A stretch of DNA of 64,000 nucleotides from a virus: the IMG/VR virus record IMGVR_UViG_3300020281_000010; one strand, written 5' to 3'. Below, piece after piece: positions 2,104-59,868 of this stretch. Both the position numbers and the translations under genes were made by a program. Within the stretch, counting starts at the first letter, position 1; each line of letters opens with the position of its first letter. Under the pieces are notes generated by a model. It had not been told where the DNA came from, ran no database searches, and saw nothing but the letters and a program-made list of their open reading frames with translations.

Positions 2104-2655
2104 ATGTCTGTATTAAATGTATTAGATACTACGACAGTGAGTGGATCAGGTACCGCTTATATTGTCGTCAAAACTGGTGTTGTACGGGCATATGCTGCTA
2201 GTGCTTCTTCCATTCAGTTCGATGCGGGTCCTGCTATTACCTTGGCAGCAGGCGAAGCAATTCTTCTTTCCTGTGGAAAGTCAAAGAACGTTAGTGTCCA
2301 CGCTGCGACTAACGCGGACCCTTGTGTATTCAGCGTTGGTGGGGCGGGCGTCGGTTCAGGAGCAGGAGGAAGACATACTTTTGCTGTTGGCGATTATATT
2401 CAAACAGTTGATGGTGGAGATACAAACGGATTTGGTTCCGACTTTGTATCTGCTGCTTCAGGTGGTAAAAAAGTAACTGCTGTGACTGACCTGACTATCA
2501 CAACAGATATTGATGCCTCTGGTGCAAGTGCTGCATATACTTTGAGTGATGCAGACATCATTGCAAACACAGTTCCTCAAATCCAGAGAACTGTAAAACT
2601 CACAGCAGGTTCCGCTAACGTCATCGTCGAACAAGTACAAATTGTTGGTGGTTGA
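2104..2655 (+). CDS. Probable virion structural protein (Gly/Ala/Thr-rich beta protein)
   Basis: Small-residue-rich composition, late promoter and position next to gp16. Confidence 0.55.
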   Translation: MSVLNVLDTTTVSGSGTAYIVVKTGVVRAYAASASSIQFDAGPAITLAAGEAILLSCGKSKNVSVHAATNADPCVFSVGGAGVGSGAGGRHTFAVGDYIQTVDGGDTNGFGSDFVSAASGGKKVTAVTDLTITTDIDASGASAAYTLSDADIIANTVPQIQRTVKLTAGSANVIVEQVQIVGG

Positions 2656-2657
2656 TA

Positions 2658-3344
2658 ATGGAGAAGCAGGCACCTCAAAAAACTAAGGAGAATCCTAAGG
2701 ATCAAGCGATCAAGAAGACCAAGCAACTTCTAGACCGCAGGCAACTTATGATTAATCTTAGGAAGTTGCAACTCCAGAGAAAATCAGTTCAAAACAAGGG
2801 TACTACCGATATGACGCTACAAACACAATCATATGCTATACTAAGTTTCGGAGAGTTTATCTCTGAGGGTGGTCTCGCCCGTGCTATGCAAAAGTCCAAC
2901 ACCAAAGTGACTGGACATATCAGTGCTGACCGTGGATCTTCTGAAAAGGAGAACCGTAGTAAAAGAAAAGGACTTGAGAAAGACCTTAAGAAGCACGGTA
3001 TTGGTCACAAGAAAGGTGTCGGAGAATATAAATATGATTCAGGTGAGACAGGTCGTGAGGTTTCATACCACACTTCCAAACCCGACAAAATGTCGAAACG
3101 TAGATTCGGCAAGGTGATGCGTCGTCTTGGTCGTAAGCACGGACAAGAATCTGTGATTACTAAAGACAAGGACAAGTCTGCTAAACTTCACTATACAGAG
3201 AAGGGAAGCAAGGCGAAATCTGATAGCATCGGTAAAACAAAAGTCGGAAAACATCCTGAAGGATATGGTGAAACATCATCCACTAAGGTGCGTTCAGGCA
3301 AACTTCCCTCTAAATCTAAGGATAGAAAGTTTCATTATGGCTAG
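2658..3344 (+). CDS. Lys-rich hypothetical protein with internal FGEFISE/GG motif
   Basis: ORF track; very basic C-terminal two-thirds follows a CTS-like, gp21-like cleavage motif. Confidence 0.7.
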   Translation: MEKQAPQKTKENPKDQAIKKTKQLLDRRQLMINLRKLQLQRKSVQNKGTTDMTLQTQSYAILSFGEFISEGGLARAMQKSNTKVTGHISADRGSSEKENRSKRKGLEKDLKKHGIGHKKGVGEYKYDSGETGREVSYHTSKPDKMSKRRFGKVMRRLGRKHGQESVITKDKDKSAKLHYTEKGSKAKSDSIGKTKVGKHPEGYGETSSTKVRSGKLPSKSKDRKFHYG

Positions 3345-3480
3345 TCAAAACGACAACGGGCAGTGGGTATGTCAGTATTGCGGACTCACTTCACCTCAAG
3401 GGCATTGGCGTCCTAAAACTTGGATCGAAAAGCACGAAATGAATTGTGCATCTAACCCTAAAAACAATAAAGAGAAATGA
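3337..3480 (+). CDS. 47-aa CCHC zinc-finger-like peptide
   Basis: MASQNDNGQWVCQYCGLTSPQGHWRPKTWIEKHEMNCASNPKNNKEK; overlaps both neighbours. Confidence 0.6.
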   Translation: MASQNDNGQWVCQYCGLTSPQGHWRPKTWIEKHEMNCASNPKNNKEK

Positions 3481-4013
3481 AATCTTTCAGAGAGTTCCAC
3501 GAAACCAAAGATGATCCCATCGAAGAAGGTGTGGGACTCGCTGTAGCGCGAGCAATCGACAAGACTAATCCTCCTTTGGGTAGACCATCCAGAAGAAGAA
3601 AGATCTCTCACGCATTGAAGATGAGAGAAATCATTAGAGATACTAAGAGAAACAAACAGAAAGACGATCCTTATTCAGCAGGTAAGGTTGCTAAGGCAGC
3701 ACTTGGTGGAAAGGATAGTAAGAAGAAAAAGAAACCAGAAAAATCTCCTGTTAACTTCCTACAGGACAAGGACGTAAAAGAAAGTGCTTGGCAAAGAAAG
3801 GAAGGCAAGAATCCTAGTGGTGGACTGAACGAGAAAGGACGTAAGTCCTATGAAAGAGAGAACCCTGGTTCAGATCTTAAAGCACCACAACCAGAAGGCG
3901 GTCCTAGAAAGAGATCATTCTGTGCTCGTATGGGTGGAATGAAAGGACCAATGAAAGACGATAAAGGCAAACCTACACGTAAGGCACTCGCACTTAGAAA
4001 GTGGAAGTGCTAA
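3477..4013 (+). CDS. Basic modular hypothetical protein (C-terminal DUF6321-like module)
   Basis: MKSFREFHE N-terminus; C-terminal AWQRKEGKNPSGGLNEKGRKSY...RKRSFCARM...LRKWKC module. Confidence 0.75.
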   Translation: MKSFREFHETKDDPIEEGVGLAVARAIDKTNPPLGRPSRRRKISHALKMREIIRDTKRNKQKDDPYSAGKVAKAALGGKDSKKKKKPEKSPVNFLQDKDVKESAWQRKEGKNPSGGLNEKGRKSYERENPGSDLKAPQPEGGPRKRSFCARMGGMKGPMKDDKGKPTRKALALRKWKC

Positions 4014-16745: not shown

Positions 16746-16940
16746 ATGCCATCAATTCAAGCGAAAGAAATCGTCAACAAAATCTTTTCAGGATCGAAAG
16801 ATCTCAGTAGTGAAGTTGATGATGCGATGAAAGCAATTACCGCTGATGCTCTAGAAGCAAAGAAAAAGGAAATTGCAGGTGACTGGATGCAACCTGAAAC
16901 TCAAGAGGAACCAAATGAAACTGATCACGGAACAGATTGA
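16746..16940 (+). CDS. Small prohead core protein (gp67/gp68 position)
   Basis: Located between gp20 and gp21; CTAAATA late box at 16718-16724. Confidence 0.55.
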   Translation: MPSIQAKEIVNKIFSGSKDLSSEVDDAMKAITADALEAKKKEIAGDWMQPETQEEPNETDHGTD

Positions 16941-17565
16941 AGACGTTCAAATCCTTTCTGAGGAGAAGAACGGTAAGAAAAATCTATACATAGAAGGAAC
17001 ATTCCTACAAGGCGAGATTAAAAATCGCAACGGAAGAATGTACCCTATCAACACACTCCGTAGAGAAGTTGATAAATACAATGAATCTTTTGTTAAAAAT
17101 GGTCGCGCCCTTGGCGAACTGGGACATCCTGACGGACCAACAGTTAACCTCGACCGTGTATCACATTTGATCACATCGCTAGTCCAAGAAGGTAATAACT
17201 TCAGAGGAAGAGCAAGAATCCTAGATACTCCTATGGGTAACATCGCTAAGAACCTTTTGGGTGAAGGCGTGAAACTAGGTGTTTCATCACGTGGAATTGG
17301 TTCACTCCAAGAGACTCGTGACGGAGCAAAAGTAGTTGCTGATGATTTTATGTTGGCAACCGCAGCAGACATTGTTGCTGATCCCTCAGCACCAGATGCT
17401 TTTGTAAATGGAATTATGGAAGGCAAAGAATGGGTCTGGAATAACGGAATCATTCAAGAGTCTGAAATTAACCAGATGAAGAAGCAAATTGACAATGCTG
17501 CTAGTCGCAAGATTCTTGAAGAGCGGAAGATTTCCGCGTTTTCAAAATTCTTAAACTCCCTGTGA
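16915..17565 (+). CDS. gp21: Prohead protease
   Basis: MKLITE start; NRNGRMYP, ALGELGHP, LGVSSRG (His/Ser catalytic motifs). Confidence 0.96.
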   Translation: MKLITEQIEDVQILSEEKNGKKNLYIEGTFLQGEIKNRNGRMYPINTLRREVDKYNESFVKNGRALGELGHPDGPTVNLDRVSHLITSLVQEGNNFRGRARILDTPMGNIAKNLLGEGVKLGVSSRGIGSLQETRDGAKVVADDFMLATAADIVADPSAPDAFVNGIMEGKEWVWNNGIIQESEINQMKKQIDNAASRKILEERKISAFSKFLNSL

Positions 17566-18657: not shown

Positions 18658-20025
18658 ATGTTCAAATCCGAGCATCTGCAGGAGAAGTGGTCACCCGTTC
18701 TTAATTGTGAGGGTCTTGATTCCATCAAGGACAACTACAAAAAGGCGGTCACCGCAATCCTGCTCGAAAACCAAGAATCATTCCTGAAGGAAGAAAGAGG
18801 CATCCTCACCGAGGCAGCACCTACTAACTCTACAGGTTCTTCAAGCAGTGCAGCAGGTTTCTCTGCTGACGCTACAGCAACTGGTCCTGTTGCAGGTTTC
18901 GACCCTGTTCTGATCTCCTTGATCAGACGTTCAATGCCTAAGCTTATTGCTTATGACATTGCAGGCGTTCAACCTATGACTGGTCCTACTGGTCTGATCT
19001 TCGCAATGAGATCTAGATACGGTACTGACAGAGCATCTGGTACAGAAGCATTCTTCAACGAAGCAGATTCACAATTCACAGGTACTGACGCCGCAGGTAC
19101 TAGCGGTTTCGGTTCTGCAGGTTCTGCTCAGGCAGGATCAAACCCAGGTCTTCTTAATGACTCTGGTACATACACCAACGGTACAGGAATGAGAACTGAT
19201 GAGTCTGAGACTCTCGGTACTGGTTCTAATGCCTTCGCTGAAATGAACTTCAGCATTGAGAAAGTTACTGTGACTGCGAAGTCCAGAGCACTCAAGGCAG
19301 AGTACAGTTTGGAACTTGCTCAAGATCTTAAGGCAGTTCACGGTCTGGACGCTGAATCTGAGTTGGCAAACATCTTGTCTACTGAGGTTCTTGCTGAGAT
19401 CAACCGTGAAGTTGTTAGAACTGTGTACAAGGTTGCAAGACCTGGTTCTCAGTCAAACACAGCAACTGCAGGTATCTTCGATCTTGACGTTGACTCCAAT
19501 GGTAGATGGTCTGTTGAGAAGTTCAAAGGTCTTCTCTTCAACATCGAAAGAGATATGAATGCCATCGGGCACGAGACAAGACGCGGTAAGGGTAACATCC
19601 TGATCTGTTCTGCTGACGTTGCATCTGCATTGTCAATGGCAGGCGTTCTTGACTACACACCCGCACTTTCAGGCAACAGCAACCTTCTTCCTGACGATAA
19701 CAGCAGCACCCTTGCAGGTACTCTTAACGGTAGAATCAAGGTTTACGTTGATCCTTACTCTGCTAACGTTAGTGACAGACACTTCTACGTTGCAGGTTAC
19801 AAAGGTAGTTCTGCATATGATGCAGGTCTGTTCTACTGTCCTTATGTTCCTCTCCAAATGGTTAGAGCCGTTGGTCAGGACACCTTCCAACCAAAAATTG
19901 GATTTAAGACAAGATACGGTCTTGTTGCAAACCCATTTGCTGAAGGTACAACTCAGGGTAGTGGCGCTCTTACTGCTAACGCTAACCGTTACTACAGACG
20001 TAGTTTGGTTGACAACCTTATGTAA
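18658..20025 (+). CDS. gp23: Major capsid protein
   Basis: LIRRSMPKLIAYDIAGVQPMTGPTGLIFAM, RALKAEYSLELAQDLKAVHGLDAE, QPKIGFKTRYG. Confidence 0.98.
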   Translation: MFKSEHLQEKWSPVLNCEGLDSIKDNYKKAVTAILLENQESFLKEERGILTEAAPTNSTGSSSSAAGFSADATATGPVAGFDPVLISLIRRSMPKLIAYDIAGVQPMTGPTGLIFAMRSRYGTDRASGTEAFFNEADSQFTGTDAAGTSGFGSAGSAQAGSNPGLLNDSGTYTNGTGMRTDESETLGTGSNAFAEMNFSIEKVTVTAKSRALKAEYSLELAQDLKAVHGLDAESELANILSTEVLAEINREVVRTVYKVARPGSQSNTATAGIFDLDVDSNGRWSVEKFKGLLFNIERDMNAIGHETRRGKGNILICSADVASALSMAGVLDYTPALSGNSNLLPDDNSSTLAGTLNGRIKVYVDPYSANVSDRHFYVAGYKGSSAYDAGLFYCPYVPLQMVRAVGQDTFQPKIGFKTRYGLVANPFAEGTTQGSGALTANANRYYRRSLVDNLM

Positions 20026-21298: not shown

Positions 21299-22758
21299 TG
21301 GTAACCATTGAAAAGAAGAATGAAGCGTTCCTGAAAATCAGGGCGGAACTCAGTGTACATAAGGAGTTATCTGACTACTTTACATTTGAGGTCCCTGATG
21401 CAAAGTTCCTTAAAACCCAAAAGAGATACAAGTATTGGGATGGAAGAATCCGTCTTTACTCTCCTGGGACTGGGGAACTACCTTTAGGTCTCTTTCATTA
21501 TCTTGAAGAATGGTTACAGAAAAAGCAATACGAATATAAAATAGAAGACAACAAATATTGTGGTATCCCAGGTGAAGTCAACACACTTATCACACCCGAG
21601 GCAGTTAATGGTTTTGTTAGATCTCTGGGTACTCCTTTCAAGGCGAGAGATTACCAACTCCAAAGTGTTTATTCAGCACTTCGGCACAACCGTAGATTAC
21701 TACTCTCTCCCACTGGATCTGGAAAATCTTTCATAATCTATTGTCTTCTCAGGTGGCACCTGCAGTACAAGAGAGAGATATTGATTATTGTACCCACAAC
21801 CTCACTGGTTGAACAACTTTATAAGGACATTGAACAGTATGGATTCTACGCTCGCGACACCATTTACAAGATCTACGGAGGAAGAGAACGTTATACAGAG
21901 AGTCCTGTCGTCATATCTACGTGGCAATCTATCTACAAGGAGTCTAAAAATTACTTTAATAGGTTTGATGTTGTTATCGGCGATGAAGCGCACCTCTACA
22001 AAGCAAAGTCGCTAACAGGAATCCTCAACAAATGCCACAATGCCAAGTACAGAATTGGATTGACTGGCACCCTTGACGGTATGCAGTGTCATCAACTGCA
22101 ACTGGAAGGTATGTTTGGCAAGGTAAATAATGCTATACGCACAAAGGATCTGCAGAAGAAAGGTCATCTGACTGAACTGAAGATAAACATCCTGCTGTGT
22201 AAACATAATTATACTCGCTTCGCTGACTATCAAGATGAGATTAATTATATCATAACTCACGAGAAAAGAAATAAAATTATTACTGGTCTTGCGCGAGACT
22301 TACCTGGGAATACACTGATTCTATTCAACTACGTGGAGAAGCACGGAGAACCTCTTTACGAAATGATAAATAGTAAAGGAGGAGACAAACGTATCTTCTT
22401 TATACACGGAAAAGTTCCGACTGACGAACGAGAAGAAGCACGCCAGATTTGTGAGAACACAGACAATGCAATCATCCTTGCATCGTACGGGACGTTCTCA
22501 ACTGGTATCAATATAAAAAACTTACATAATGTAATATTTGCATCTCCATCAAAGTCTAGGATTCGCAATCTTCAGTCTATTGGTAGAGCATTACGGAAGC
22601 ACGACTCGAAAGGTCAAGCAACCCTATATGATTTTGCTGATGATATAAGCAATGGTCATTTTAATAATGCAACTTTGAACCATTTAGTTGAACGTATTCG
22701 TACTTACAAGGATGAGAAGTTCGACTATTCAATCACAAAGATCAAACTAGGAGAATAG
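21298..22758 (+). CDS. uvsW: SF2 DNA helicase
   Basis: LSPTGSGKS, IGDEAH, GLTGT, SRIRNLQSIGRALR. Confidence 0.95.
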   Translation: MVTIEKKNEAFLKIRAELSVHKELSDYFTFEVPDAKFLKTQKRYKYWDGRIRLYSPGTGELPLGLFHYLEEWLQKKQYEYKIEDNKYCGIPGEVNTLITPEAVNGFVRSLGTPFKARDYQLQSVYSALRHNRRLLLSPTGSGKSFIIYCLLRWHLQYKREILIIVPTTSLVEQLYKDIEQYGFYARDTIYKIYGGRERYTESPVVISTWQSIYKESKNYFNRFDVVIGDEAHLYKAKSLTGILNKCHNAKYRIGLTGTLDGMQCHQLQLEGMFGKVNNAIRTKDLQKKGHLTELKINILLCKHNYTRFADYQDEINYIITHEKRNKIITGLARDLPGNTLILFNYVEKHGEPLYEMINSKGGDKRIFFIHGKVPTDEREEARQICENTDNAIILASYGTFSTGINIKNLHNVIFASPSKSRIRNLQSIGRALRKHDSKGQATLYDFADDISNGHFNNATLNHLVERIRTYKDEKFDYSITKIKLGE

Positions 22759-22759
22759 T

Positions 22760-23203
22760 ATGTCTCTAAATTACATCAAACCAGACGAGGAATTCTTTGG
22801 ATGTATGAAACTTACATCTGGAGAGGAACTGCTTGGACGTATTGTTGTTGTGGAAGAGCATAAAGGTTTCTACTGTGCTTTCATTCAAGACCCCGCCAAG
22901 GTGCATTCTCAGGATAAAATTATCGACGACAAGCGGGCGGTGGCAGTAGGTCTCAAGAGATGGATGGTTTTCTCTGATGAAGATTTCTTTATCATTCCTG
23001 AAGAGAGAATCATAACGATCGCGCCGATGTCGCAGGACGCGGTAATGATGTATAAGTTTTTCGTTAAGCAAGAATTAAAAAGATCACCCAACCCCGACAA
23101 TATCCCTGATTCGAGTATTGAACTCACTCAAGAAATGGGACTGCTCGGTACATTAGAAGAAGCAAGAAAAAGACTTGAACAACTGTTTAATGGTAATAGC
23201 TAA
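22760..23203 (+). CDS. Hypothetical protein (possible Sm-like fold)
   Basis: MKLTSGEELLG motif; conserved position between uvsW and gp55. Confidence 0.65.
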   Translation: MSLNYIKPDEEFFGCMKLTSGEELLGRIVVVEEHKGFYCAFIQDPAKVHSQDKIIDDKRAVAVGLKRWMVFSDEDFFIIPEERIITIAPMSQDAVMMYKFFVKQELKRSPNPDNIPDSSIELTQEMGLLGTLEEARKRLEQLFNGNS

Positions 23204-23232
23204 GAATATCCTTTGCAACCCTGACAGTGTTG

Positions 23233-23261
23233 ATCATAATTGTTTCAGAGGGTGTTGTCAA
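23233..23261 (-). promoter_or_regulatory. Antisense sigma70-like promoter
   Basis: Minus strand reads TTGACA-N17-TATGAT. Confidence 0.65.
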
Positions 23262-23276
23262 GGGTATCAATATCCA

Positions 23277-23305
23277 TTGACGAAAACCCTGTTGTCTGTT
23301 ATGAT
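23277..23305 (+). promoter_or_regulatory. sigma70-like promoter for gp55
   Basis: TTGACG-N17-TATGAT. Confidence 0.75.
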
Positions 23306-23328
23306 TTCAATATGAATTAAACCTACCG

Positions 23329-23811
23329 ATGGCATTAATGGCAGCACGGAGAACTAAAAATCAGCACTATGTAGATAACCAGAAGTTCCTTGCTGCTATC
23401 GTGGATTATCGTGACCGTGTAGAGATTGCTAAAGTTCGTAATAAACCCAAACCTAGGATCAATGAATACATTGGAGAGTGTTTCCTAAAGATCGCAACCC
23501 ACCTTTCATATAGACCTAACTTCATCAACTATATGTACAAGGAGGATATGATCAGTGATGGCATTGAGAATTGTGTTCAGTATATTGACAATTTCGATCC
23601 TGCTAAAAGCAGGAATCCTTTTGCATATTTTACTCAAATCGTTTACTATGCATTCCTAAGAAGGATTGCTAAAGAGAAGAGACAGATGGATATTAAAGAT
23701 AAGATTATTGAGAAGTCAGGTTTTGATCAGGTCTTCCACTCTGATGGTGATGGAGATACTGCACAACTGAATAGTATCAAGTCCCGTATTGAGATGAACA
23801 ATCGTTACTAA
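23329..23811 (+). CDS. gp55: Late-transcription sigma factor
   Basis: HYVDNQKF, YRPNFINY, MISDGIENC, NPFAYFTQI. Confidence 0.96.
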   Translation: MALMAARRTKNQHYVDNQKFLAAIVDYRDRVEIAKVRNKPKPRINEYIGECFLKIATHLSYRPNFINYMYKEDMISDGIENCVQYIDNFDPAKSRNPFAYFTQIVYYAFLRRIAKEKRQMDIKDKIIEKSGFDQVFHSDGDGDTAQLNSIKSRIEMNNRY

Positions 23812-50583: not shown

Positions 50584-51417
50584 ATGGCAAACAAGGGATT
50601 GCAATTTGAACACGCTGTGATGTACTCGGCAACGAGTCGTATTATTAATAAGAGTTCTCAGAATCAGAAAGATTTTGAGGATGCCTCAGGACGTATTAGT
50701 GGCATCCCAAATGACATAAGATCTGCTGCGGATAGAATTGTTGAGTCTATGGCACCTACTGGTAATAATATAGAAGCAAGACAGAAATATTATCAATCAT
50801 TCCAAAAGATGTCTGGTGGTGGAGAAGAACCAAAGACAGACATTATGTTTAAGTCGGGTGGTAAGACATACAAATGCTCTATGAAATGGGGCAAGTCATA
50901 TCAGTTGACATCTGCAGGCATTGATAAGTCTGTAGCAGTGTTCCAAAAAGTATTATCAAAGACTGCTAAACAATGTGGCGGTGGATCTACTAACGCACAG
51001 ACACTTGGTTACTTGCAGTTGATTCTTGAGCAGATTGGAAATAAATGTGAGAACGCAAAGGGAACTGTTGATCAACCAACAGCAAAAAGAATCCTTTCAG
51101 ATATTAAAAAGTCAGGTGGATTGAATGAACAGTTGCAAGAAGTGCTAGGTTCAAAAGCAAAACCTGATGGTGCTGCTGCATATGATTGCTTCAAGTATAA
51201 TCTTACACACGAGTGTATGACAGGTGCTATGTTATTCAACAATGATGACAGGGCAGCGTCTCATATCCTCACTGAGGATGGTGTGAAAGAAATTGATGAG
51301 AAAGTGGTCAGAGGTGTGATGAAACAGGCAGGTGTCAGGATGGCACTGAAGGGCAGGGGTAAGGACAAAGTTACAGGTGTCCGTCAAAATGCCATTGTGA
51401 TCCGATACGAGGTATAA
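50584..51417 (+). CDS. Putative PD-(D/E)xK endonuclease-like protein
   Basis: FE...PKTDIMF...YKCSMK pattern. Confidence 0.5.
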   Translation: MANKGLQFEHAVMYSATSRIINKSSQNQKDFEDASGRISGIPNDIRSAADRIVESMAPTGNNIEARQKYYQSFQKMSGGGEEPKTDIMFKSGGKTYKCSMKWGKSYQLTSAGIDKSVAVFQKVLSKTAKQCGGGSTNAQTLGYLQLILEQIGNKCENAKGTVDQPTAKRILSDIKKSGGLNEQLQEVLGSKAKPDGAAAYDCFKYNLTHECMTGAMLFNNDDRAASHILTEDGVKEIDEKVVRGVMKQAGVRMALKGRGKDKVTGVRQNAIVIRYEV

Positions 51418-51424
51418 TAAAGGT

Positions 51425-52618
51425 ATGGCAAAGCAAAATACCCACCTCGAACACCTTGAAGATGACATCCTAAATCAAGGTTCGAACGGAGGACGAAACG
51501 CTATCGCATTCCTCAGAGAACTTGGCAAGATGCTCACCGAACCTGTATCAGGTGTCGGTGTTACTACCAAATGGGACGGTGCTCCTGCTGTTATTTGTGG
51601 CAAGCACCCTACAACTGGTAGGTTTTTTGTTGGTACGAAGGGTGTCTTTGCTAAGATGCCAAAAATTTGTATGAATGATGAGGATGTAGATAGATTCTAC
51701 AGTGGAGAACTGGCAAAAAAACTAAAGATGTGCTTGCGTCTCCTCCCTCAGGTACCTATGAAAGGTGTACTGCAGGGTGATTTGTTGTTCACCAAAGGTG
51801 ATGTGTCAACAAGGAAGATGAATGGTCAGAAGTGTCATACTTTTATGCCAAACACCATCACATATGCTGTACCTGTTAACACACCGATGGGTAAGAAGGT
51901 AGCGACAAGTCAACTTGGTATTGTATTTCATACCACATATACTGGTGGTCCTACACTCAGGGATATGAAACCTGGGTTTGGTGTTGATGCAAAAAGAATG
52001 CAAGCATCACCCAACGTTGCAGTGTTTAGTTCAGAGTTTACAGATGCCACAGATGCATCTAGGTTTAATGCTGCAGAGAGAGGTAAGTATGATCTGCTAG
52101 TCAACCGTGCTGAAGGTTCTCTCAAGCAAGCATCTAGATTCTTGGACATCCTACAGGATCAAGGAGAGGGTAAGTTTATGCTCTCTGCTATGTTCAAAGT
52201 TTATTTCAACTCATTTATTCGTACTGGTAAACCTATTGTCAATGCACAGAAAGTTGCAGCAGGATTCGCTGCATTCTATTCAGCAGCACTAGACAAAGAG
52301 ATTCAGTCTAAGAAACAAGAAGCAACTAAGAAAAAATATCAGACCATCAAAGCAAACGGTCTGAAGTTTCTAAAGTCAAACGGACGTGCTGTGTATATGA
52401 CTGTCGCATCCTATATGAATTTGATCGCTGCTAAGACTGTAGTTGTCAAACAACTAGGAAAAGTCCAAGACATCGGTACATATATTAAGACACCCAATGG
52501 TTACAGAGTCACTGCACCAGAGGGTTTTGTAGCGATCAAGTCAGGTTCTGCCCTCAAACTTGTCGATCGTTTGGAGTTCTCTAGAGCGAACTTCACAGTA
52601 GAAAAAAATTGGGGGTGA
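51425..52618 (+). CDS. Ligase-fold nucleotidyltransferase-like protein (DUF6267-like)
   Basis: TKWDG (motif I), LQGDLLF (III), PEGFV (IV), LKLVD (V). Confidence 0.6.
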   Translation: MAKQNTHLEHLEDDILNQGSNGGRNAIAFLRELGKMLTEPVSGVGVTTKWDGAPAVICGKHPTTGRFFVGTKGVFAKMPKICMNDEDVDRFYSGELAKKLKMCLRLLPQVPMKGVLQGDLLFTKGDVSTRKMNGQKCHTFMPNTITYAVPVNTPMGKKVATSQLGIVFHTTYTGGPTLRDMKPGFGVDAKRMQASPNVAVFSSEFTDATDASRFNAAERGKYDLLVNRAEGSLKQASRFLDILQDQGEGKFMLSAMFKVYFNSFIRTGKPIVNAQKVAAGFAAFYSAALDKEIQSKKQEATKKKYQTIKANGLKFLKSNGRAVYMTVASYMNLIAAKTVVVKQLGKVQDIGTYIKTPNGYRVTAPEGFVAIKSGSALKLVDRLEFSRANFTVEKNWG

Positions 52619-52624
52619 TAAATA
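52617..52624 (+). promoter_or_regulatory. Late promoter GATAAATA
   Basis: Upstream of the cytidylyltransferase-like gene. Confidence 0.65.
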
Positions 52625-52648
52625 GATATGGAAAACACCAGTATATCA

Positions 52649-53806
52649 ATGAAGTTCAGTCAGTTTATAACTGAAGCACGCACCGCTGCAGGTGAGGTTG
52701 CTGCTAAGAGAGGTCTCCAACACGCAGGTCACGGTTACTATGCCGATAGGCAGGGTAACATTGTTGCTAAGTCTGAGGGAGGTAATCGTCTGGTGCCTGT
52801 CGATGGTAAAGAGGCAGAGCAAGCAAAGATAAATTCCGATCAAGGAGCAGCAGAAGACGAGCATATCAATAGTGGTGAAGGTCTGGGTACTATCGCTCTA
52901 ACCTTTGGACGTTTTAATCCTCCTACTGTTGGTCACGAGAAACTACTGAACACTGTATCTGAACAGGGTGCTGACAACTATAGAATCTATCCATCACGTA
53001 CTGTGGATCCTAAAAAGAACCCACTAGAACCTGATGTTAAGATTGATTTTATGACAAGGATGTTCCCTAATCACGCTGACGCTATCGTCAACGATGGTGA
53101 TATGTCTAACATCTTCAATGTACTTTCCAACCTCAATCAGGAAGGTTACTCAGGTGTAACAATGGTTGTTGGTTCTGACAGAGTATCAGAATTCAAATCA
53201 TTGCTTGAGAAATATAATGGTCAGGCATATGACTTTGAAGAACTCAATGTGATCAGTGCAGGAGAAAGAGATCCTGATGCTGAAGGTGTAGAAGGTATGA
53301 GTGCATCCAAGTTGCGAGCAATGGCAGCAGCGGGTGACTTAGAAGGTTTTACCCAAGGTGTCCCTGGTGGGGATGTCAAACTTGCTGAACAACTAATGAT
53401 GGAAGTTCGTGCAGGTATGGGTATCGTTGAACAGGAACAGGAAGAGGTTGCTGAACTTTGGGACATCGCTCCTAAACTTGACGCAGAGAATCTTCGTGAA
53501 GCGTTCTTCGAAGATAAAGTATTCCCTATGGGTTGTATTGTCGAACACCTAGACACAGGTATTAGAGGTACAGTCATTAGGAGAGGAACTAATTATGTAA
53601 TCTTTGAAACACCAGAGCATTTCAAATTCAATGTCTGGTTAACTTCTATTATGGAAGTAAAAGAACTGCATAAGTCAGCAGACGATGGCAGTGGAAATAC
53701 CTGGAAGGTCGGCACTGATACATATAGACACGCAGTCCAAGCGATGACACCTGGACAGTTGGTCAAAAAGTTCAGTGACTTCAGAAAAACAGGGTCAACT
53801 AAATAG
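52649..53806 (+). CDS. HxGH (cytidylyltransferase-like) nucleotidyltransferase
   Basis: FGRFNPPTVGH, VVGSDR, MSASKLR; start at 52649 (MKFSQFITEA) preferred. Confidence 0.85.
   Translation: MKFSQFITEARTAAGEVAAKRGLQHAGHGYYADRQGNIVAKSEGGNRLVPVDGKEAEQAKINSDQGAAEDEHINSGEGLGTIALTFGRFNPPTVGHEKLLNTVSEQGADNYRIYPSRTVDPKKNPLEPDVKIDFMTRMFPNHADAIVNDGDMSNIFNVLSNLNQEGYSGVTMVVGSDRVSEFKSLLEKYNGQAYDFEELNVISAGERDPDAEGVEGMSASKLRAMAAAGDLEGFTQGVPGGDVKLAEQLMMEVRAGMGIVEQEQEEVAELWDIAPKLDAENLREAFFEDKVFPMGCIVEHLDTGIRGTVIRRGTNYVIFETPEHFKFNVWLTSIMEVKELHKSADDGSGNTWKVGTDTYRHAVQAMTPGQLVKKFSDFRKTGSTK
53799..53805 (+). promoter_or_regulatory. Late promoter variant CTAAATA
   Basis: Upstream of ORF 53828. Confidence 0.55.
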
Positions 53807-53827
53807 TATTACGCAAATTTTCGACAG

Positions 53828-55921
53828 ATGGATTTAGAAACTACTTCGAAACTTCTGAAGTATTCACCTTCGGACGTACAATCAGTTACCTACGTTATTG
53901 AATACGCAGAGCATAACTTCACTGGTGAAGCACGCTATGCTTATCTTGAGGAGCGTCTTGTCACTCCAACAGAGAAGGCAATCGCTGAAGTTATTATCGA
54001 AGGTAAGAAAGGTTTATGGGATAACATTCACGCTAAGAGAAAGCGTGGAGAAGCACCTGCAAAACCTGGGGACAAAGACTATCCTAAAACACTCAACGTT
54101 GAGCATCACGAGAAGGATGAGAACGGTAAAGTTATTGAGCACGATGTCGAAGATGATGTCACCGAAGGTAGTGCCTATGGTATCTACAAAGGTGATGGTG
54201 TAGATAAGATTAGAGCACCTCGTAAACAAAAAGGTGCAATGGCATATGATGGTCCTAACAAGGCAGCATCTGAAGCACGCGATAGAATCCTTGCCAAGAC
54301 AAAGGCAAAGCGTGCAAAGATCAAGGAGGAAACTTCTAATGCAGCAACACTGAACAACAAACCAAGTGCTGCATCTCCTAAAATTGATACACCTAAGGAA
54401 AAGCAGTCAACCGTTGATCCTCAATGCGAGAATCAAAGATCAATCAAAGCAAAAGGTTCGACTCCTAAGACTCAGGTTGAAGAAGGACTTAAACAGGCAC
54501 GTAAGAACGTCGGCGCTAGTAAGTGTTGGGACGGTTACGTTGCTAAAGGTACCAAGAAAAAGAACGGTAAGGACGTTCCTAACTGTGTACCCGCTAACGA
54601 GGAATGGGTATGGGATGTTGTAGACGAACTCGGTGAAGAGTTTGACATCCTTACAGATCAGGATCTACAAGATGTTGTTGTAGAGGCACTGTTAGATTTC
54701 GAGACAGAAGAGTATCTAACTGAAGCACTTGACATCTTGGATGGATTCGAACTACTTGTTGAATCAGATAAGTATTACGACTCTGCAGTCAAATCATCTA
54801 AGGATGCTGCAGCACGTATTAACAGAGGCAAAAGAGCAGAGCGTTTGAAAGGCGCTGCATCTAAAGCAGGTTCTATCGTCAAGAAAGGACTTGGAATGGC
54901 AGGACGTGCTGCTAAAGCAGGTGCCAAAGCAGGTGCTAAAGGTGCAGTTCGTGGTGCAGGTTATGCATCAGGTCTTGCACAACGTGCAGCATCTTCTGCT
55001 AAGAGAGAATTCTCTCAAGGCAGAGAACGTGGACTTGGTGGTTCATCAGGTGGTTCATCAGGTGGTGGATCTTCTTCCTCAAACAATAGACCAGTACAAA
55101 CCTCAGGTAAAATCGATCGCAGACCACAACCTCAGTCTGGTGGCGGTTCTGCTCCTAAAAAGAAGGCAGGTCCAGGTCTTCTCAGTCGTGCTGCAGGTGC
55201 AGTCGGCAGAGGACTTAGAAAGGCAGTCGGAGCAGGTGCTAAGGCAGCAGGTAAAGTGGCAGTCGGTGGAGCAAAACTTGCAGGTAAGGCAGCAGTTGGT
55301 ACTGCAAAGGTCGCAGGTAAGACTGCGGTCGGTGCCGCCAAACTTGGTGGTAAGGCAGTAGCAGGTACCGCTAAAGTTGCAGGTAAAACTGCAGTTGGTG
55401 GTGCTAAACTTGCAGGCAAAGCGGTTGGTAAAACTGCACAGGCAGCAGGTTCTGTCGCTAAGGCAGGTGGTAAAGCAGCAGTAGGCACTGCTAAGGCAGC
55501 AGGTAGTGCTGTCAAGAAGACAGGTGCTGCTGTTGGTGGTGCTGTCAAGAAGACTGGTCAAGCAGCGGGTAATCTTGGTAAAAAAGTTATTGGTAAAACC
55601 TCAAGAGCAATCTCTAAAGGGTCTGATAAACTAGCAAGAAAACTCGGAGAAGAACAAATGCACGAATCAAGAGTGGACAAGGTAAGACGCCTTGCACTAG
55701 CACAAGAAACTTTCGAACACGACATCGCACAGGCACGCAATCCTGATGCTGATTCTTGGAGAGAGCGTCTTGCATACAGCAAGTACATTGCTGAACAACC
55801 AACCCCAGAGCAGTTGAAAAAGCGTGAAGTTCTAAAACAAACTAAGGAACTCACCAACAAAGGAAAGCACAAGGAAGCATCTGAATTATTCAAGAAGAAC
55901 TTCCCGAACTTTGGTAAATAG
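53828..55921 (+). CDS. Large modular Lys/Ala/Gly-rich protein (probable internal head polyprotein)
   Basis: Basic modules delimited by hydrophobic-x-E sites; 11-aa repeats. Confidence 0.7.
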   Translation: MDLETTSKLLKYSPSDVQSVTYVIEYAEHNFTGEARYAYLEERLVTPTEKAIAEVIIEGKKGLWDNIHAKRKRGEAPAKPGDKDYPKTLNVEHHEKDENGKVIEHDVEDDVTEGSAYGIYKGDGVDKIRAPRKQKGAMAYDGPNKAASEARDRILAKTKAKRAKIKEETSNAATLNNKPSAASPKIDTPKEKQSTVDPQCENQRSIKAKGSTPKTQVEEGLKQARKNVGASKCWDGYVAKGTKKKNGKDVPNCVPANEEWVWDVVDELGEEFDILTDQDLQDVVVEALLDFETEEYLTEALDILDGFELLVESDKYYDSAVKSSKDAAARINRGKRAERLKGAASKAGSIVKKGLGMAGRAAKAGAKAGAKGAVRGAGYASGLAQRAASSAKREFSQGRERGLGGSSGGSSGGGSSSSNNRPVQTSGKIDRRPQPQSGGGSAPKKKAGPGLLSRAAGAVGRGLRKAVGAGAKAAGKVAVGGAKLAGKAAVGTAKVAGKTAVGAAKLGGKAVAGTAKVAGKTAVGGAKLAGKAVGKTAQAAGSVAKAGGKAAVGTAKAAGSAVKKTGAAVGGAVKKTGQAAGNLGKKVIGKTSRAISKGSDKLARKLGEEQMHESRVDKVRRLALAQETFEHDIAQARNPDADSWRERLAYSKYIAEQPTPEQLKKREVLKQTKELTNKGKHKEASELFKKNFPNFGK
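55238..55435 (+). repeat. Degenerate 33-bp (11-aa) tandem repeat, about 6 copies
   Basis: AKAAGKVAVGG/AKLAGKAAVGT/AKVAGKTAVGA/AKLGGKAVAGT/AKVAGKTAVGG/AKLAGKAVGKT. Confidence 0.85.
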
Positions 55922-55922
55922 T

Positions 55923-56369
55923 ATGGGCAAAAAAACAAAAATTATTATCAACCCTAAGAAGGAAGATCTAATGAAGGAATCCATCCGCGCACTTCTTCAG
56001 GCAGAACTCGCTGATCTGAAAGAAGCATCTAAAAAGAAACTTGACCCTGTAGGTAAGGAAGACAAGGACATCGACAACGACGGTGACCACGATAAGTCTG
56101 ACAAGTACCTGATCAATCGCAGAAAAACTGTTGCGAAAGCGATGGGAAAGAAAACCCATCTATGTGCTAAGTATGTTGAGCACGCTGAGTATGGTTTGTG
56201 CTATACAATTCCTGAGGCACATACCTTGGTAGAGATGGCAGAACCTGATGAGTTCGGTCACACTCACGAGGTTACTCACTACGACATCGTAGATGAGGCA
56301 GAACAAATGTACAGTCAAGTTCCTGCTAGTGAACTCGATATGGTTATTGTTGAATCGCACAAGCACTAA
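55923..56369 (+). CDS. Modular hypothetical protein with EF-hand-like loop
   Basis: LKE/ASKKKLDPVGKEDKDIDNDGDHDKSD. Confidence 0.7.
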   Translation: MGKKTKIIINPKKEDLMKESIRALLQAELADLKEASKKKLDPVGKEDKDIDNDGDHDKSDKYLINRRKTVAKAMGKKTHLCAKYVEHAEYGLCYTIPEAHTLVEMAEPDEFGHTHEVTHYDIVDEAEQMYSQVPASELDMVIVESHKH

Positions 56370-56776
56370 TGAAATCTTTCGGAGAATACCTCAACGAATT
56401 GAATCGGTACGAAAAAGAAACTGGTAAGTCCACTGGCAAAGTTACTGGTCGTACTGGTCTCAATACTCCTGCCGCAGGCACACCTACTCAAAAAGGTGGT
56501 GCAGGTAAGGACTCTGCTGTTGCTAACGTCAAGCGGATGGTACGCAGTATGCAGGGTGGCAAAGAGGTAGGTCAGATCAAGAAACAGAAAGGTGCTAAGT
56601 CTACTGCAGGTACTAACAAGTACGGAAAGATGGCATCGCATCGTGCTTCAGTCAAGGCACAGACTGAAAAGGATATGAAGAAACGTGGTTTCAAGACCAC
56701 TAAAGACTATACAAATACTATGGCACGCTACGGTGGTAAAGATAACTACGACAAAGGACGTGGTTTAGGATCATAA
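56369..56776 (+). CDS. Basic protein with CTS-like N-terminus
   Basis: MKSFGEYLNE, then Lys/Gly-rich sequence. Confidence 0.7.
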   Translation: MKSFGEYLNELNRYEKETGKSTGKVTGRTGLNTPAAGTPTQKGGAGKDSAVANVKRMVRSMQGGKEVGQIKKQKGAKSTAGTNKYGKMASHRASVKAQTEKDMKKRGFKTTKDYTNTMARYGGKDNYDKGRGLGS

Positions 56777-56812
56777 CGGTGCCTATATAGAGTAGGTTTC
56801 TCTCTATTAATT

Positions 56813-57007
56813 ATGGTAAAATTCCTTCTTCCATTTGCAATCAAAGTTATCGACGCAGCAGTCGATAAGATTCCAGATAATCTAGATGATGTAATCAAGA
56901 AATTGCTCATCTCTCTAGCAAAAAAAGCAGTCTCAAGAACTGACAATACCGTTGACGATCAACTGGTCGCAGCACTTGAGAAGGCACTATTCCCTGTAGA
57001 GGGTTAG
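56813..57007 (+). CDS. Small amphipathic protein (holin-like candidate)
   Basis: TDNTVDDQLV motif after amphipathic helices. Confidence 0.5.
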   Translation: MVKFLLPFAIKVIDAAVDKIPDNLDDVIKKLLISLAKKAVSRTDNTVDDQLVAALEKALFPVEG

Positions 57008-57021
57008 TCTCACAGACACTG

Positions 57022-57040
57022 GGGACCTTCGGGTCCCTTT
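57022..57040 (+). terminator. Rho-independent terminator
   Basis: GGGACC-UUCG-GGUCCC plus UUU. Confidence 0.75.
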
Positions 57041-57048
57041 CGTGTTTG

Positions 57049-57056
57049 TATAAATA
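57049..57056 (+). promoter_or_regulatory. Late promoter TATAAATA
   Basis: Perfect consensus upstream of ORF 57087. Confidence 0.8.
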
Positions 57057-57086
57057 AAATATAGGAAACATTCGGAGTAAATCAAG

Positions 57087-57872
57087 ATGGCCATTCTGGG
57101 CAAAATCGACGCAGCAACGTTCTCCAATAATGTCGCGGTCACTAATGGTGACGCAACTGTTACTAAGAATGCCGCCGACACCGTTGTTGTCGGAGATGTT
57201 CTAGAATTGGGTAATGTCGCTTACATCGTCAAGCAAGTTAACAGCACAACTTCAATCGAGTTGCACAAGAACTATGCAGGCAGCACAAACTCAGGTTTGT
57301 CTGGTGCTGTAAGGAGAACTCCTCCTAAGGCAGTTGCTGAGTATGTAGTTAAAGGTGGCGACAGTATCTCAGACTATCAACTTATCTTCGTTGATACTAC
57401 TGAAGATGGTATTGCATCCAACAAGTCCCGTGGTATTGACGGACCTGGATGGTGGTTGTACAGAACATACAACACAGCAGGTGGAACTACACGTCACAAG
57501 GCAGAAAAACTTGCAGCACTTAGAGTTGCAGCAGGTACATCTGGTGACGATGCTGATGATACAGTGGCAGCAGACGTGCTTGAGACCATTACTATTGGTA
57601 CTCAACCTGCTGATCAAAACACATCTTCTGGTGCAGCAACATTCACTGTCGCAGCAACTGTGGATCAGTCAGGTACTATCACTTATCAGTGGCAGAAGAG
57701 AACATCTTCCTCTGGAAGATTCTCTAACGTGTCTGGTGCAACCAGTGCATCTCTTGCATTGACAGGTCAGACCTCTGCTAATACAGGCAACCAGTACAGA
57801 GTTAAAGTTAACTCAAGCAAGGGTGCCGCTGAAGTTGTAAGTAGTATCGCTACTCTAACTTTCGTTAGTTAA
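57087..57872 (+). CDS. Virion structural protein with C-terminal Ig-like domain
   Basis: ITIGTQPAD...TFTVAA...TYQWQK...YRVKVNS Ig pattern; late promoter. Confidence 0.7.
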   Translation: MAILGKIDAATFSNNVAVTNGDATVTKNAADTVVVGDVLELGNVAYIVKQVNSTTSIELHKNYAGSTNSGLSGAVRRTPPKAVAEYVVKGGDSISDYQLIFVDTTEDGIASNKSRGIDGPGWWLYRTYNTAGGTTRHKAEKLAALRVAAGTSGDDADDTVAADVLETITIGTQPADQNTSSGAATFTVAATVDQSGTITYQWQKRTSSSGRFSNVSGATSASLALTGQTSANTGNQYRVKVNSSKGAAEVVSSIATLTFVS

Positions 57873-57889
57873 TTAAACCTTCCTTTGTA

Positions 57890-58261
57890 ATGCAATTTGA
57901 TATTCTCACAGCGGACAACTTTATGATGTTCGCTATGAAACACTACGATAACCCCCAGTCAGTTACATATGATGACTTCCTTGAAGATATGATGCGTTTC
58001 AAATATTTGAAGCGTCTCTTTGGGAGGTACATCAAGACTGGGGTTCTTCGTAATCATTTGATACTGAATCATTTGATCGTATTATTCAATGTGTTTGGTG
58101 ATGCTGCCATACCTTTGTTAGTCTTTAAGGTTGACAAACAGTATTGGGACATCCTTAAAACATATTTACTTTATCTGAACAGATACCCCGAGACAGGATG
58201 CGGGACCTTAGATTATGTTGAGATTGATGCATCCGTAAGTAAACAGTTGAGTGACCTCTGA
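57890..58261 (+). CDS. Conserved T4-like hypothetical protein
   Basis: FAMKHYDNPQ...RFKYLKRL...LILNHLIVLFNVFG. Confidence 0.75.
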   Translation: MQFDILTADNFMMFAMKHYDNPQSVTYDDFLEDMMRFKYLKRLFGRYIKTGVLRNHLILNHLIVLFNVFGDAAIPLLVFKVDKQYWDILKTYLLYLNRYPETGCGTLDYVEIDASVSKQLSDL

Positions 58262-59868
58262 TGCCTGCAAAATCCGTAGCACAAAGAAGATTTATGGGAA
58301 TGGTACGTGCCACCCAGAAGGGAGAGATGAAGAATCCATCGCCCGAGTTGAAACGTGCTGCAGGTGATATGTCTGCTAAGGCAGTCAACAAGTTTGCTAA
58401 AACAAAAGAAAAGAATTTACCTGATACTGTACATAAGATGCCTGATGGTACACTGATGCCAGGCAAAACACATAAGGAAGCATACGCAGTACAAGCAATG
58501 ACTGTGGTTCCAGGTGGTGCAGATCATAGCAATACCAGACAGGGAAGTATTGGTAAGAAGAAAAAGAAAGAAGAGATTAAAGAGTTTGTAGGTGCAGCAG
58601 CGGCAGGTACTGCAGGAGCACTGACTGCAAAGAAAGGTAACAGAGTTAAGAAGGCAGTTGGTTCAGGTGCAGGATACGCAGTAGGTTCTACAGTCGGTAG
58701 GAAAGTTGGTGGTGCAGTTGGACAGGCAGTGGGTCAGGGAACTGTTCCTCTTGTTGGTGGTGCCATTGGTAAACAGGTTGGTAAAGCAATCGGTCACGGT
58801 GTAGGTGGTGCAGCAGGTGCTATCGCAGGTGGCAAGTTAGCAACAAAGATTGGTAAGAAGAAAGAGAAGAAAGAAACAAACGAAGAGATGCAACTGGAGA
58901 AGTTCAGTGCTATCACTAAGAAGCGCATCAATAAGATGGCAGCAGATAAGAAGGTAGGTAAGGGTGAGAAGATTGGTTCTGTCGTAGGTGGTATCGGTGG
59001 AGCACTTGCTCTTGGTGCTGTTGATGGTCCTCTACCTGTAGGTGATGTGGTAGGTGGTGTTGTTGGATCTAAGATTGGTGGTAAGATCGGCAAACAATTT
59101 GATAAGAAGAAGGTAAAGAAAGAAGAGTATATGGATGAAGCAAAGTATGAGGCAGGTGCTTCAACTTATGGTAAAGCATCTATCAGAAACAAAAGAAAGT
59201 TTGGTAAGGGTGGTAACGCTGCTCCTCCAGAGGAGAGAGGTGAGATGATCGCCAAGCGAAGAGCAGAGCACAAAGCATCACGTGGTGTAAAGAAAGAAGA
59301 GATTGATAGACCATACACAGGACCTGACAAGAAAGACAGAGCAGTTATCAAGAAGATGGATAACAAAAAGTTTGCTGCCAAACTAGCAGACTATGAAAAG
59401 AATATGGATCCTAAGAAACGTCAGGCACTTAAGGACAAAGCAACTAAGGGTATGAAGTTTGTGCACGAAGAAGGTGCACCTACTATGAATACAGGATCTA
59501 ATGCTAGTGCAGCAGGATTCTCCTCTGATGCTGATGAGAACGGACCAACCGCAGGTATGGATCAACCGTTAGGTGGTACTGCCAAGTTGAAAGGTAAGGG
59601 TCCTAAACTGACAAAGAAGAAAGCAAAGTGTAAGAAGTCTCCCGATGGTATAAATAAGGTATGTGAATCTACCGAGGCAAGATACTTATCTTTCCTTGTG
59701 CAGATGGACGACGTTGAGTTTATATTTCAGGGTAAATCACCTGCTGATGTAAAGATAAGACTTCGTAAAATTTATAGACCAGAAAGATTGAAGGGTATTA
59801 AGATTACTCGGATGCTTCCTGCTCAAGTGATGCACTATTATTGGGAGAAACGCCAGGCAGCGATGTAA
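58261..59868 (+). CDS. Modular basic polyprotein with glycine zippers
   Basis: MPAKSVAQRRFMGMV start; GxxxG runs; KKEE-delimited modules. Confidence 0.7.
   Translation: MPAKSVAQRRFMGMVRATQKGEMKNPSPELKRAAGDMSAKAVNKFAKTKEKNLPDTVHKMPDGTLMPGKTHKEAYAVQAMTVVPGGADHSNTRQGSIGKKKKKEEIKEFVGAAAAGTAGALTAKKGNRVKKAVGSGAGYAVGSTVGRKVGGAVGQAVGQGTVPLVGGAIGKQVGKAIGHGVGGAAGAIAGGKLATKIGKKKEKKETNEEMQLEKFSAITKKRINKMAADKKVGKGEKIGSVVGGIGGALALGAVDGPLPVGDVVGGVVGSKIGGKIGKQFDKKKVKKEEYMDEAKYEAGASTYGKASIRNKRKFGKGGNAAPPEERGEMIAKRRAEHKASRGVKKEEIDRPYTGPDKKDRAVIKKMDNKKFAAKLADYEKNMDPKKRQALKDKATKGMKFVHEEGAPTMNTGSNASAAGFSSDADENGPTAGMDQPLGGTAKLKGKGPKLTKKKAKCKKSPDGINKVCESTEARYLSFLVQMDDVEFIFQGKSPADVKIRLRKIYRPERLKGIKITRMLPAQVMHYYWEKRQAAM

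Follow-up and report, generated by a model that had tools for sequence, protein, structure and literature searches.

Candidate head-cargo genes with T4-like targeting leaders and glutamate-bounded modules in a T4-like cyanomyovirus

In adenoviruses, the core precursors pVII and pX/mu are processed by the viral protease into basic, DNA-bound peptides that are released in the capsid and stay with the genome. Phages and conjugative elements reportedly encode multi-domain polyvalent proteins, described by Iyer and colleagues and mentioned in PMC7824862, which are thought to travel with the DNA and to be processed into several effectors. Closer to the subject of this work, the internal proteins IPII and IPIII of phage T4 both start MKTYQEFIAE/A in the T4 record (here and below a slash marks the cut position), and positions 4 and 7 of this leader serve targeting, positions 8 and 10 processing (review of T4 head assembly, PMC9026906). 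In the giant phages phiKZ, 201phi2-1 and SPN3US, the prohead protease cuts after A-x-Glu or S-x-Glu (PMC5694885). Here we describe a set of genes with T4-like leaders and glutamate (Glu)-bounded modules in the IMG/VR virus record IMGVR_UViG_3300020281_000010, of which one stretch of 64,000 nucleotides (the window) was analysed.

DNA and protein searches match the window only to Synechococcus and Prochlorococcus myoviruses, and it belongs to a T4-like cyanomyovirus. T4-like cyanophages are among the most abundant viruses of the ocean, and several of their virion proteomes report 'non-structural' proteins without a mechanism, including NMNAT/cytidylyltransferase-like enzymes, an S-adenosylmethionine (SAM) hydrolase and many unknowns. 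The genes in question form a main locus and two outlying open reading frames (ORFs, named here by their first nucleotide; Table 1). We consider it probable that they encode head cargo loaded and trimmed by the T4-type prohead machinery, in a cassette-style variant of the T4 internal-protein system. The ten-residue N-terminal leader would take a protein into the gp22 scaffold core, like the T4 capsid-targeting sequence, and the serine protease gp21 would cut after the leader Glu. In ORFs 53828 and 55923, and probably 58261 and 2658, hydrophobic-x-Glu sites at the joints of small modules would yield several pieces from each translation product. The predicted basic mini-proteins released in this way include the GLWDNIHAKRKRGE module, the CWDGY..PNCV module and DUF6321, with acidic spacers between them. 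Enzymes, namely the cytidylyltransferase/NMNAT-like and SAM-lyase-like proteins, would be packaged by the same route. At least some of the products would stay in the head; the pieces might offset the charge of the DNA, or be injected and serve as early effectors. An earlier note, made from the letters of this DNA, had proposed head-packaged polyproteins cut by gp21 into a shuffled library of small cationic peptides; its sequence observation is confirmed as real and statistically strong, and its interpretation is partly supported.

Leaders and the head-maturation machinery

Four ORFs of the window carry a leader matching the T4 capsid-targeting sequence, and all four lie where the earlier note had placed them: MKSFREFHE in 3477, LSFGEFISE/G in 2658, MKFSQFITE/A in 52649 and MKSFGEYLNE in 56369. 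Their agreement with T4 extends to the positions used for targeting and processing, which supports the note's description of them as capsid-targeting-like. Judged against a form of about ten N-terminal residues that is aromatic at positions 4 and 7 and has leucine or isoleucine at 8 and Glu at 10, ORF 56369 is exact, 52649 is one residue shorter, 3477 has its Glu at position 9, and the copy in 2658 (ILSFGEFISE/G, at nucleotide 2838) is internal. A strict DNA pattern for M-K-x-(F/Y)-x-x-(F/Y)-x-x-E gave nine matches in seven cyanomyovirus genomes, and the reversed pattern, used as a control, gave none; a back-of-envelope estimate from base frequencies puts the chance expectation at about 0.02 per genome. 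A survey of about 350 IMG/VR loci yielded 38 distinct leaders, which also agree with T4 at positions left free in the pattern: position 3 is S, T or N in 36 of 38 and position 6 is E or Q in 30 of 38. Position 8 is L, I, V or M, and position 10 is E, in 31 of 38 each. The resulting consensus is M-K-(S/T/N)-(F/Y)-x-(E/Q)-(F/Y)-(L/I/V)-x-E.

Among related viral contigs this leader heads at least ten unrelated protein families. These comprise the nucleotidyltransferase family, the family of the 135-residue ORF 56369, short DUF6321 proteins, the ORF 3477 family, a family of about 103 residues, a 'DVELTDAYG' family, SAM-lyase-like proteins, a 131-residue protein that reproduces the gp23 N-arm, and others. 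Some small ORFs fuse the leader directly to a module, through the same joint that connects modules to each other (MKTYTQFIEE/GKKGLWDN is one such case), and one ORF of 171 amino acids consists of the leader and three modules only. Pfam and PHROG scans of all ORFs found no T4 internal-protein family, and the likeness to T4 is confined to the leader.

The window encodes an S77 protease, a gp22 scaffold core and a gp23 with a cut-type propeptide, as does T4. The junction pattern that the earlier note had pointed out in gp23 (ILTE/AA after E52) and gp22 (VTE/A) is present in both proteins, and T4 gp23 reads SFLTE/AE at the equivalent place. Since the gp23 of the window retains LTE/A at the T4 position, the specificity of gp21 was probably kept.

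The leader-bearing proteins themselves are diverse. ORF 3477 matches DUF6321 (PF19846) at 89.4 bits against a cut-off of 28.5 and is 60% identical to the C-terminus of S-SM1_115 (T4-GC119); S-SCSM1_29, an annotated virion protein of 517 amino acids, likewise ends in a DUF6321 module. ORF 2658 is 40% identical to S-CREM2 gp6, a SAM hydrolase starting MKDFDSFLE/E, and an IMG/VR relative starts MKTYKEFMLE/C. Relatives of ORF 56369 start MKSFKEYITE/L or MKNFEEFLTE/L. The start at 52649 is the second ATG of ORF 52628-53806, and most tblastn alignments to cyanomyovirus records begin there (residue 9); orthologues have the leaders MKKFSAFLSE/A (Syn9), MKKFSAFLNE/A (S-SM1) and MKNFSSFLTE/A (S-CREM2). 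Its predicted assignment as a cytidylyltransferase/NMNAT-like enzyme draws on phrog_395 and on PPTVGH and MSASKLR motifs in the sequence; CTP_transf_like (PF01467) stays below its gathering cut-off (18.3 against 21 bits). The product is a predicted head-targeted enzyme cargo. The phrog_455 profile (764 positions) aligns to a DUF6267 ligase-like protein at 23-340 and to the cytidylyltransferase-like protein at 344-719 (window 51425-53806). As it spans both proteins, some phages probably encode them as a single chain with the leader in the middle.

Modules, their borders and the hydrophobic-x-Glu signal

ORF 53828 consists of a conserved N-terminal domain, a GLWDNIH module (nucleotides 54002-54103), an acidic spacer, a basic piece, a CWDGY..PNCV module (54485-54613), an acidic block, a stretch rich in Ala, Gly and Lys that contains 11-residue repeats, and a C-terminus that is again conserved. 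Its junctions read IIE/G, VTE/G, VEE/G, LVE/S and MHE/S. Alignment of its orthologues shows conserved ends and cassettes gained or lost at Glu sites. Parts of the protein are homologous to S-SM1_191 and Syn9 gp185, two virion proteins to which ORF 55923 is also related (74% identity over 39 residues and 57% over 114 residues, respectively); homologues of the two ORFs are fused in a single gene in S-SM1 (S-SM1_191) and Syn9 (gp185). A Pfam scan of ORFs 53828, 55923 and 56369 gave no match. The AKxAGKxAVGx repeats of ORF 53828 (window 55217-55597) are confined to this phage and its nearest relative; orthologues that lie beside an enzyme of 86-88% identity lack them, and they look like a recent expansion.

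ORF 58261 has junctions MDE/A and VHE/E, and its DUF3008-like start falls below the gathering cut-off of that family (PF11450, 16.9 against 24 bits). All junctions that the earlier note had listed in ORFs 53828, 55923 and 58261 were found. The C-terminal 132 residues of ORF 58261 (59470-59868), which follow KFVHE/, equal the stand-alone virion protein T4-GC426 and are homologous to S-SM1_197 and Syn9 gp190, which are separate genes. After KFVHE/, 21 of 34 residues are identical to gp23 after ILTE/ (18811-18912). In both Syn9 and S-SM1 the primase gene follows directly on the T4-GC426 gene. A 58-codon frame by the primase region of T4 (NC_000866 19011-19127), presumably gene 61.1, starts MKTFKEFIKE/D, after which its sequence follows the N-arm of gp23 (E 9e-6, with 44% of residues identical). 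An N-arm mimic addressed to the head thus looks ancestral to T4-like phages.

The proteins of the system are strongly basic overall (net charges +43, +57, +25, +19 and +32). The earlier note's description of small cationic peptides does not extend to all predicted pieces, which include acidic spacers, a 301-residue Ala/Gly/Lys-rich piece, an enzyme of net charge -19 and an acidic piece of 114 residues. The proposed module library exists among phages. GLWDNIH and CWDGY..PNCV were each found in over 450 stretches of viral DNA, in shuffled contexts and hundreds of arrangements, and among isolates they are nearly confined to cyanomyoviruses (70 of 71 records). An all-against-all BLAST of the window ORFs found no common modules and only low-complexity Ala/Gly/Lys similarity, and the shuffling is therefore between phages. 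A look-up of the module region in the ESM Atlas returned only unnamed viral clusters, with scores of at most 0.85.

The residues in front of the modules were counted with P1 as the residue before the predicted cut, P3 as the third residue before it, and L, V, I, F or M at P3 scored as hydrophobic. GLWDNIH has Glu at P1 in 54 of 55 unique upstream contexts and a hydrophobic P3 in 52, with P2 and P4 free to vary. For ARKNVGA the counts are 56 of 57 (Glu within 8 residues) and, for P3, 48 of these 56, for LDPVGKED 15 and 14 of 15, and for DUF6321 21 and 15 of 21; the background of a hydrophobic P3 given Glu is 0.30. At borders defined solely by steps in homology coverage, hydrophobic-x-Glu stands at 39-43% against 12% expected, and the same test with Asp or Lys replacing Glu gives values at or below expectation. 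Raw ends of BLAST high-scoring segment pairs had also been tried as module borders; these gave a 2-3.5-fold enrichment and were dropped in favour of the coverage steps and anchor-based counts, because the acidic linkers are themselves half-conserved and leave such ends too fuzzy. Corrected for composition, hydrophobic-x-Glu is enriched in ORFs 3477 (z 3.3), 53828 (z 2.7) and 55923 (z 1.9, or 5.9 when A, G or S follows), similarly to the known substrates gp21 (z 2.7) and gp22 (z 2.5). Enrichment of the motif and its place at module borders are as in substrates of the S77 prohead protease, which cuts after L/I-x-Glu, with ORF 58261 and one border of the GLWDNIH module as exceptions; the earlier claim of gp21-type sites at module borders stands far above background apart from these two.

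Podoviruses provide a natural control. DUF6321 also occurs in the T7-like cyanopodoviruses S-RIP2 and P-SCSP1b, in Pelagibacter podophages and in a Methylophilales phage. Peptidase_S77 had no match in any of the five podovirus genomes examined (S-RIP2, P-SCSP1b, HTVC115P, Greip and MEP402), whereas all five myovirus records tested had one. In these podoviruses DUF6321 is a stand-alone gene of 83-101 codons, which in four of five starts at the module itself (e.g. MAKSPAWQRKEGKN). S-RIP2 and P-SCSP1b have a GLWDNIH-type module as a small separate gene as well, which in P-SCSP1b is a 58-residue ORF starting MAKKKGLYANIHAKRKR. The module genes of all five have neither leader nor junction motif, and those of S-RIP2, P-SCSP1b and HTVC115P lie within the structural module. 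Among 112 DUF6321 matches in 160 IMG/VR loci, the Glu-bounded junction goes with a T4-like context and the direct start with its absence (odds ratio 61, p 7e-14). It is thus the protease, and not the modules, that leader and junction motif accompany. The genes for the DUF6321 and GLYANIHAKRKR mini-proteins are adjacent in P-SCSP1b (11941-12359), directly after the major capsid gene, and in S-RIP2 (22548-23363), between the gene at the scaffold position and psbA; the cyanopodovirus mini-proteins may be small virion proteins too.

Virion proteomes and alternative explanations

Published proteomes connect these genes with virus particles; the detections concern orthologues in other phages and whole particles, and the ORF 56369 family is not among them. 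Orthologues of 52649, 53828/55923, 3477, 2658 and the C-terminus of 58261 have been detected in virions of S-SM1, S-CREM2 or S-SCSM1. For purified S-SM1 particles, Table S8 of Sullivan et al. 2010 (PMC3037559), with clusters matched to GenBank notes, lists peptide counts of 25 for T4-GC190 (cytidylyltransferase-like), 17 for T4-GC426, 13 for T4-GC119 (a polyprotein ending in DUF6321), 12 for T4-GC1453 (S-SM1_188, 56% identical to ORF 50584), 10 for T4-GC1454 (the modular protein related to 53828 and 55923) and 7 for T4-GC1455. In the 175-kb genome of S-CREM2 the strict leader pattern matches only two genes, those for the cytidylyltransferase and the SAM hydrolase, and exactly these two products were reported as 'non-structural' virion proteins, unexplained by the authors; the SAM hydrolase gp6 gave 19 peptides in virion mass spectrometry (PMC10665884). 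The NMNAT-like orthologue of S-SCSM1 is likewise present in the virion (PMC9602691). A targeting sequence or processing goes unmentioned in the S-SM1, S-CREM2 and S-SCSM1 papers, as it does in a review on T4-like cyanophages. A literature search on capsid-targeting sequences, prohead proteases and internal proteins of cyanophages and on DUF6321, DUF3008 and DUF7207, which did not cover the Syn9 and S-PM2 proteome papers, yielded none that describes the system. The system is apparently undescribed in the literature searched.

Several observations weigh against loaded and trimmed cargo. None of these proteins has a known cleavage product, new N-terminus or gel shift, and the published mass spectrometry consists of tryptic searches, in which whole proteins and pieces, or head and tail, look alike. 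The T4-GC190 enzyme is missing from the proteomes of Syn9 and S-PM2, and S-SCSM1_30, a small leader-bearing ORF, carries no virion-protein flag. In place of an N-terminal leader, ORF 53828 and its orthologues share a different conserved start of 45 residues. ORF 58261 has no excess of hydrophobic-x-Glu sites (z -1.2), and the C-terminal border of the GLWDNIH module, LNVE, is non-canonical with Asn at P3. Furthermore, any Glu is found at 65-84% of borders against 36% expected, some Glu near borders being expected because the linkers are acidic overall, and the orthologues compared are non-independent observations.

The alternative that fares best takes up much of this: the modular virion proteins would stay whole, or lose the leader only, and the joints would be flexible acidic linkers or helix caps between mini-domains. 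It agrees with the lack of observed cleavage, with the generally Glu-rich linkers, and with the unenriched ORF 58261 and the LNVE border. Acidic linkers do not by themselves account for three modules having a hydrophobic P3 in 86-95% of their contexts (background 0.30) while P2 and P4 vary; nor do they account for a joint between leader and module identical to that between modules, or for the separate, motif-free genes that start at the joint in protease-less phages. We consider this alternative unlikely, if serious. It is more improbable still that the proteins belong to the scaffold or core, as gp22, gp67 and gp68 do in T4; they would then enter the prohead, be cut up and mostly exit before DNA packaging, and their part would lie in assembly, not in cargo that is retained or injected. 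Such a role would suit the site enrichment shared with gp22 and gp21, the acidic blocks of ORF 53828, which resemble scaffold segments, and the many cut sites of T4 core proteins (PMC5694885). Orthologue peptides were however found in caesium chloride-purified mature virions, at counts similar to those of portal and scaffold remnants, and the cargo comprises enzymes and strongly basic modules, the latter encoded by podoviruses as small genes within or beside structural modules. That the junction is instead a recombination footprint, short conserved DNA at module edges promoting shuffling with the protein motif as a by-product, fits the cassettes gained and lost exactly at joints between close relatives and the hundreds of module arrangements, but is very improbable, as the motif is absent where the protease is absent, and a P3 varying among L, V, I, F and M beside a free P2 fits selection on the peptide and not a fixed DNA word. 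Precursors of ribosomally synthesized and post-translationally modified peptides, with a leader and repeated cores, were also considered and rejected: no modification enzymes lie nearby, the modules have 30-110 residues and the orthologues are virion proteins.

Under the head-cargo reading, leader and protease sites together would form a code that explains how enzymes and unknown proteins enter the particles, and the head cargo of any such phage would become predictable from sequence. A very large set of small unnamed modules (GLWDNIH, CWDGY, DUF6321 and the DUF3008-like start) would gain a probable role, and foreign proteins could be loaded into cyanophage heads with the leader as their tag, as has been done with T4. 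A broader proposal, which we put forward tentatively and hold to be rather doubtful, is that of a general two-part address code, in which the leader and the hydrophobic-x-Glu joints would load and release any protein or string of mini-proteins in the head. A fast-shuffling combinatorial cargo, made up of basic mini-proteins shared with podoviruses, a SAM lyase directed against restriction-modification and an NMNAT-like transferase, would then be injected with the DNA and serve take-over and anti-defence before phage genes are expressed.

Genomic surroundings and comparison with described systems

The main locus lies between gp41 and gp61, in an order as in Syn9 (gp182-gp191) and S-SM1 (genes 188-198). 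The primase gp61 is at 60257 and gp15 is also present in the window; we take further genes to be gp43, UvsX and gp41 from gene order. The two outlying ORFs lie downstream of gp15 and a DUF7243 gene, where S-SM1 has the single 1488-nucleotide gene of T4-GC119. Late-promoter-like motifs are found upstream of 50584 (CATAAATA, 26 nucleotides upstream), 52649 (GATAAATA, 32 nucleotides upstream) and 57087, with a weaker TAAATA before 53828, which suggests late timing of the locus. The earlier note had treated 52649-59868 as one system; three genes within that span are not part of it (Table 1).

Table 1. Features of the window discussed in the text
Feature	Position	Strand	Remarks
228-residue basic protein, S-adenosylmethionine-lyase family	2658..3344	+	PF23780, 34.6 bits against a cut-off of 28
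178-residue basic protein	3477..4013	+	leader MKSFREFHE/T; DUF6321 C-terminal module after DVKE/S
gp21 prohead protease	16915..17565	+	Peptidase_S77, E 3e-35; proposed processing enzyme
gp22 scaffold	17614-18606	+	T4_CASP Pfam match; reads VTE/A
gp23 major capsid protein	18658-20025	+	Gp23 Pfam match; ILTE/AA after E52
277-residue protein	50584..51417	+	opens the virion gene block marked by late-promoter-like motifs; orthologue of virion protein S-SM1_188
Cytidylyltransferase/NMNAT-like enzyme (T4-GC190), predicted	52649..53806	+	phrog_395, E 9e-89; leader MKFSQFITE/A
697-residue candidate polyprotein	53828..55921	+	piecewise matches to 9 PHROG families; net charge +43
148-residue modular protein	55923..56369	+	junctions LMKE/S and LKE/A, then LDPVGKED module
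135-residue protein	56369..56776	+	leader MKSFGEYLNE/L, then 125-residue basic body, net +20
phrog_402 gene	56813		not part of the system
Head protein related to Syn9 gp188	57087-57872		phrog_613, 55% identity to Syn9 gp188; not part of the system
DUF7207 gene	57890		not part of the system
535-residue basic protein	58261..59868	+	DUF3008-like start, glycine-zipper stretches, Lys/Glu linkers

Some neighbouring genes deserve mention in their own right. Between gp20 and gp21, where T4 has gp67/gp68, the window has an acidic ORF of 64 residues (16746-16940), which is preceded by a TAAATA 27 nucleotides upstream and matches DUF7216 weakly (26.4 against a cut-off of 27 bits). The DUF7243 protein (window 2104-2655) is the orthologue of S-SM1 T4-GC403, whose 60 virion peptide counts are among the highest of the table. 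The head protein gene at 57087-57872 has an exact TATAAATA 38 nucleotides upstream, and the conserved C-terminal part of its product, about 100 residues (TITI..QWQK..YRVKV..), looks like a candidate Ig-like decoration domain.

The adenovirus core precursors offer an analogy only, as virus, protease and sequences are unrelated to those of the window. Polyvalent proteins are said to have large enzymatic domains and often a peptidase of their own, whereas the units described here are mostly tiny basic modules and would depend on the head-maturation protease. The podovirus DUF6321 and GLYANIHAKRKR genes share the same modules, and their DUF6321 starts at the myovirus junction position in four of five, but they are separate genes that lack leader, junction motif and S77 protease. 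The giant phages resemble the proposed system in that a short motif directs cleavage after Glu in many of their head and ejection proteins, and extra sites chop the propeptides into small pieces (PMC5694885); in contrast, P3 is Ala or Ser there and not L, I or V, and it is large proteins that lose propeptides, whereas the substrates proposed here include strings of reusable modules of 30-70 residues.

The T4 internal proteins IPI, IPII and IPIII and Alt share with the window a near-identical ten-residue leader, ending in hydrophobic-x-Glu, on unrelated and mostly basic proteins. Both phages have an S77 protease, a gp22 scaffold and a gp23 with an LTE/A site. Orthologues of several window proteins have been detected in virions of other cyanophages. 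In contrast to the T4 proteins, to which they show no similarity beyond the leader, many of the window's proteins are multi-module chains with internal sites and several predicted products per gene, their cargo includes a nucleotidyltransferase and a SAM-lyase-like protein, and their genes occupy sites other than the ip loci of T4, namely downstream of gp15/gp16 and between gp41 and gp61.

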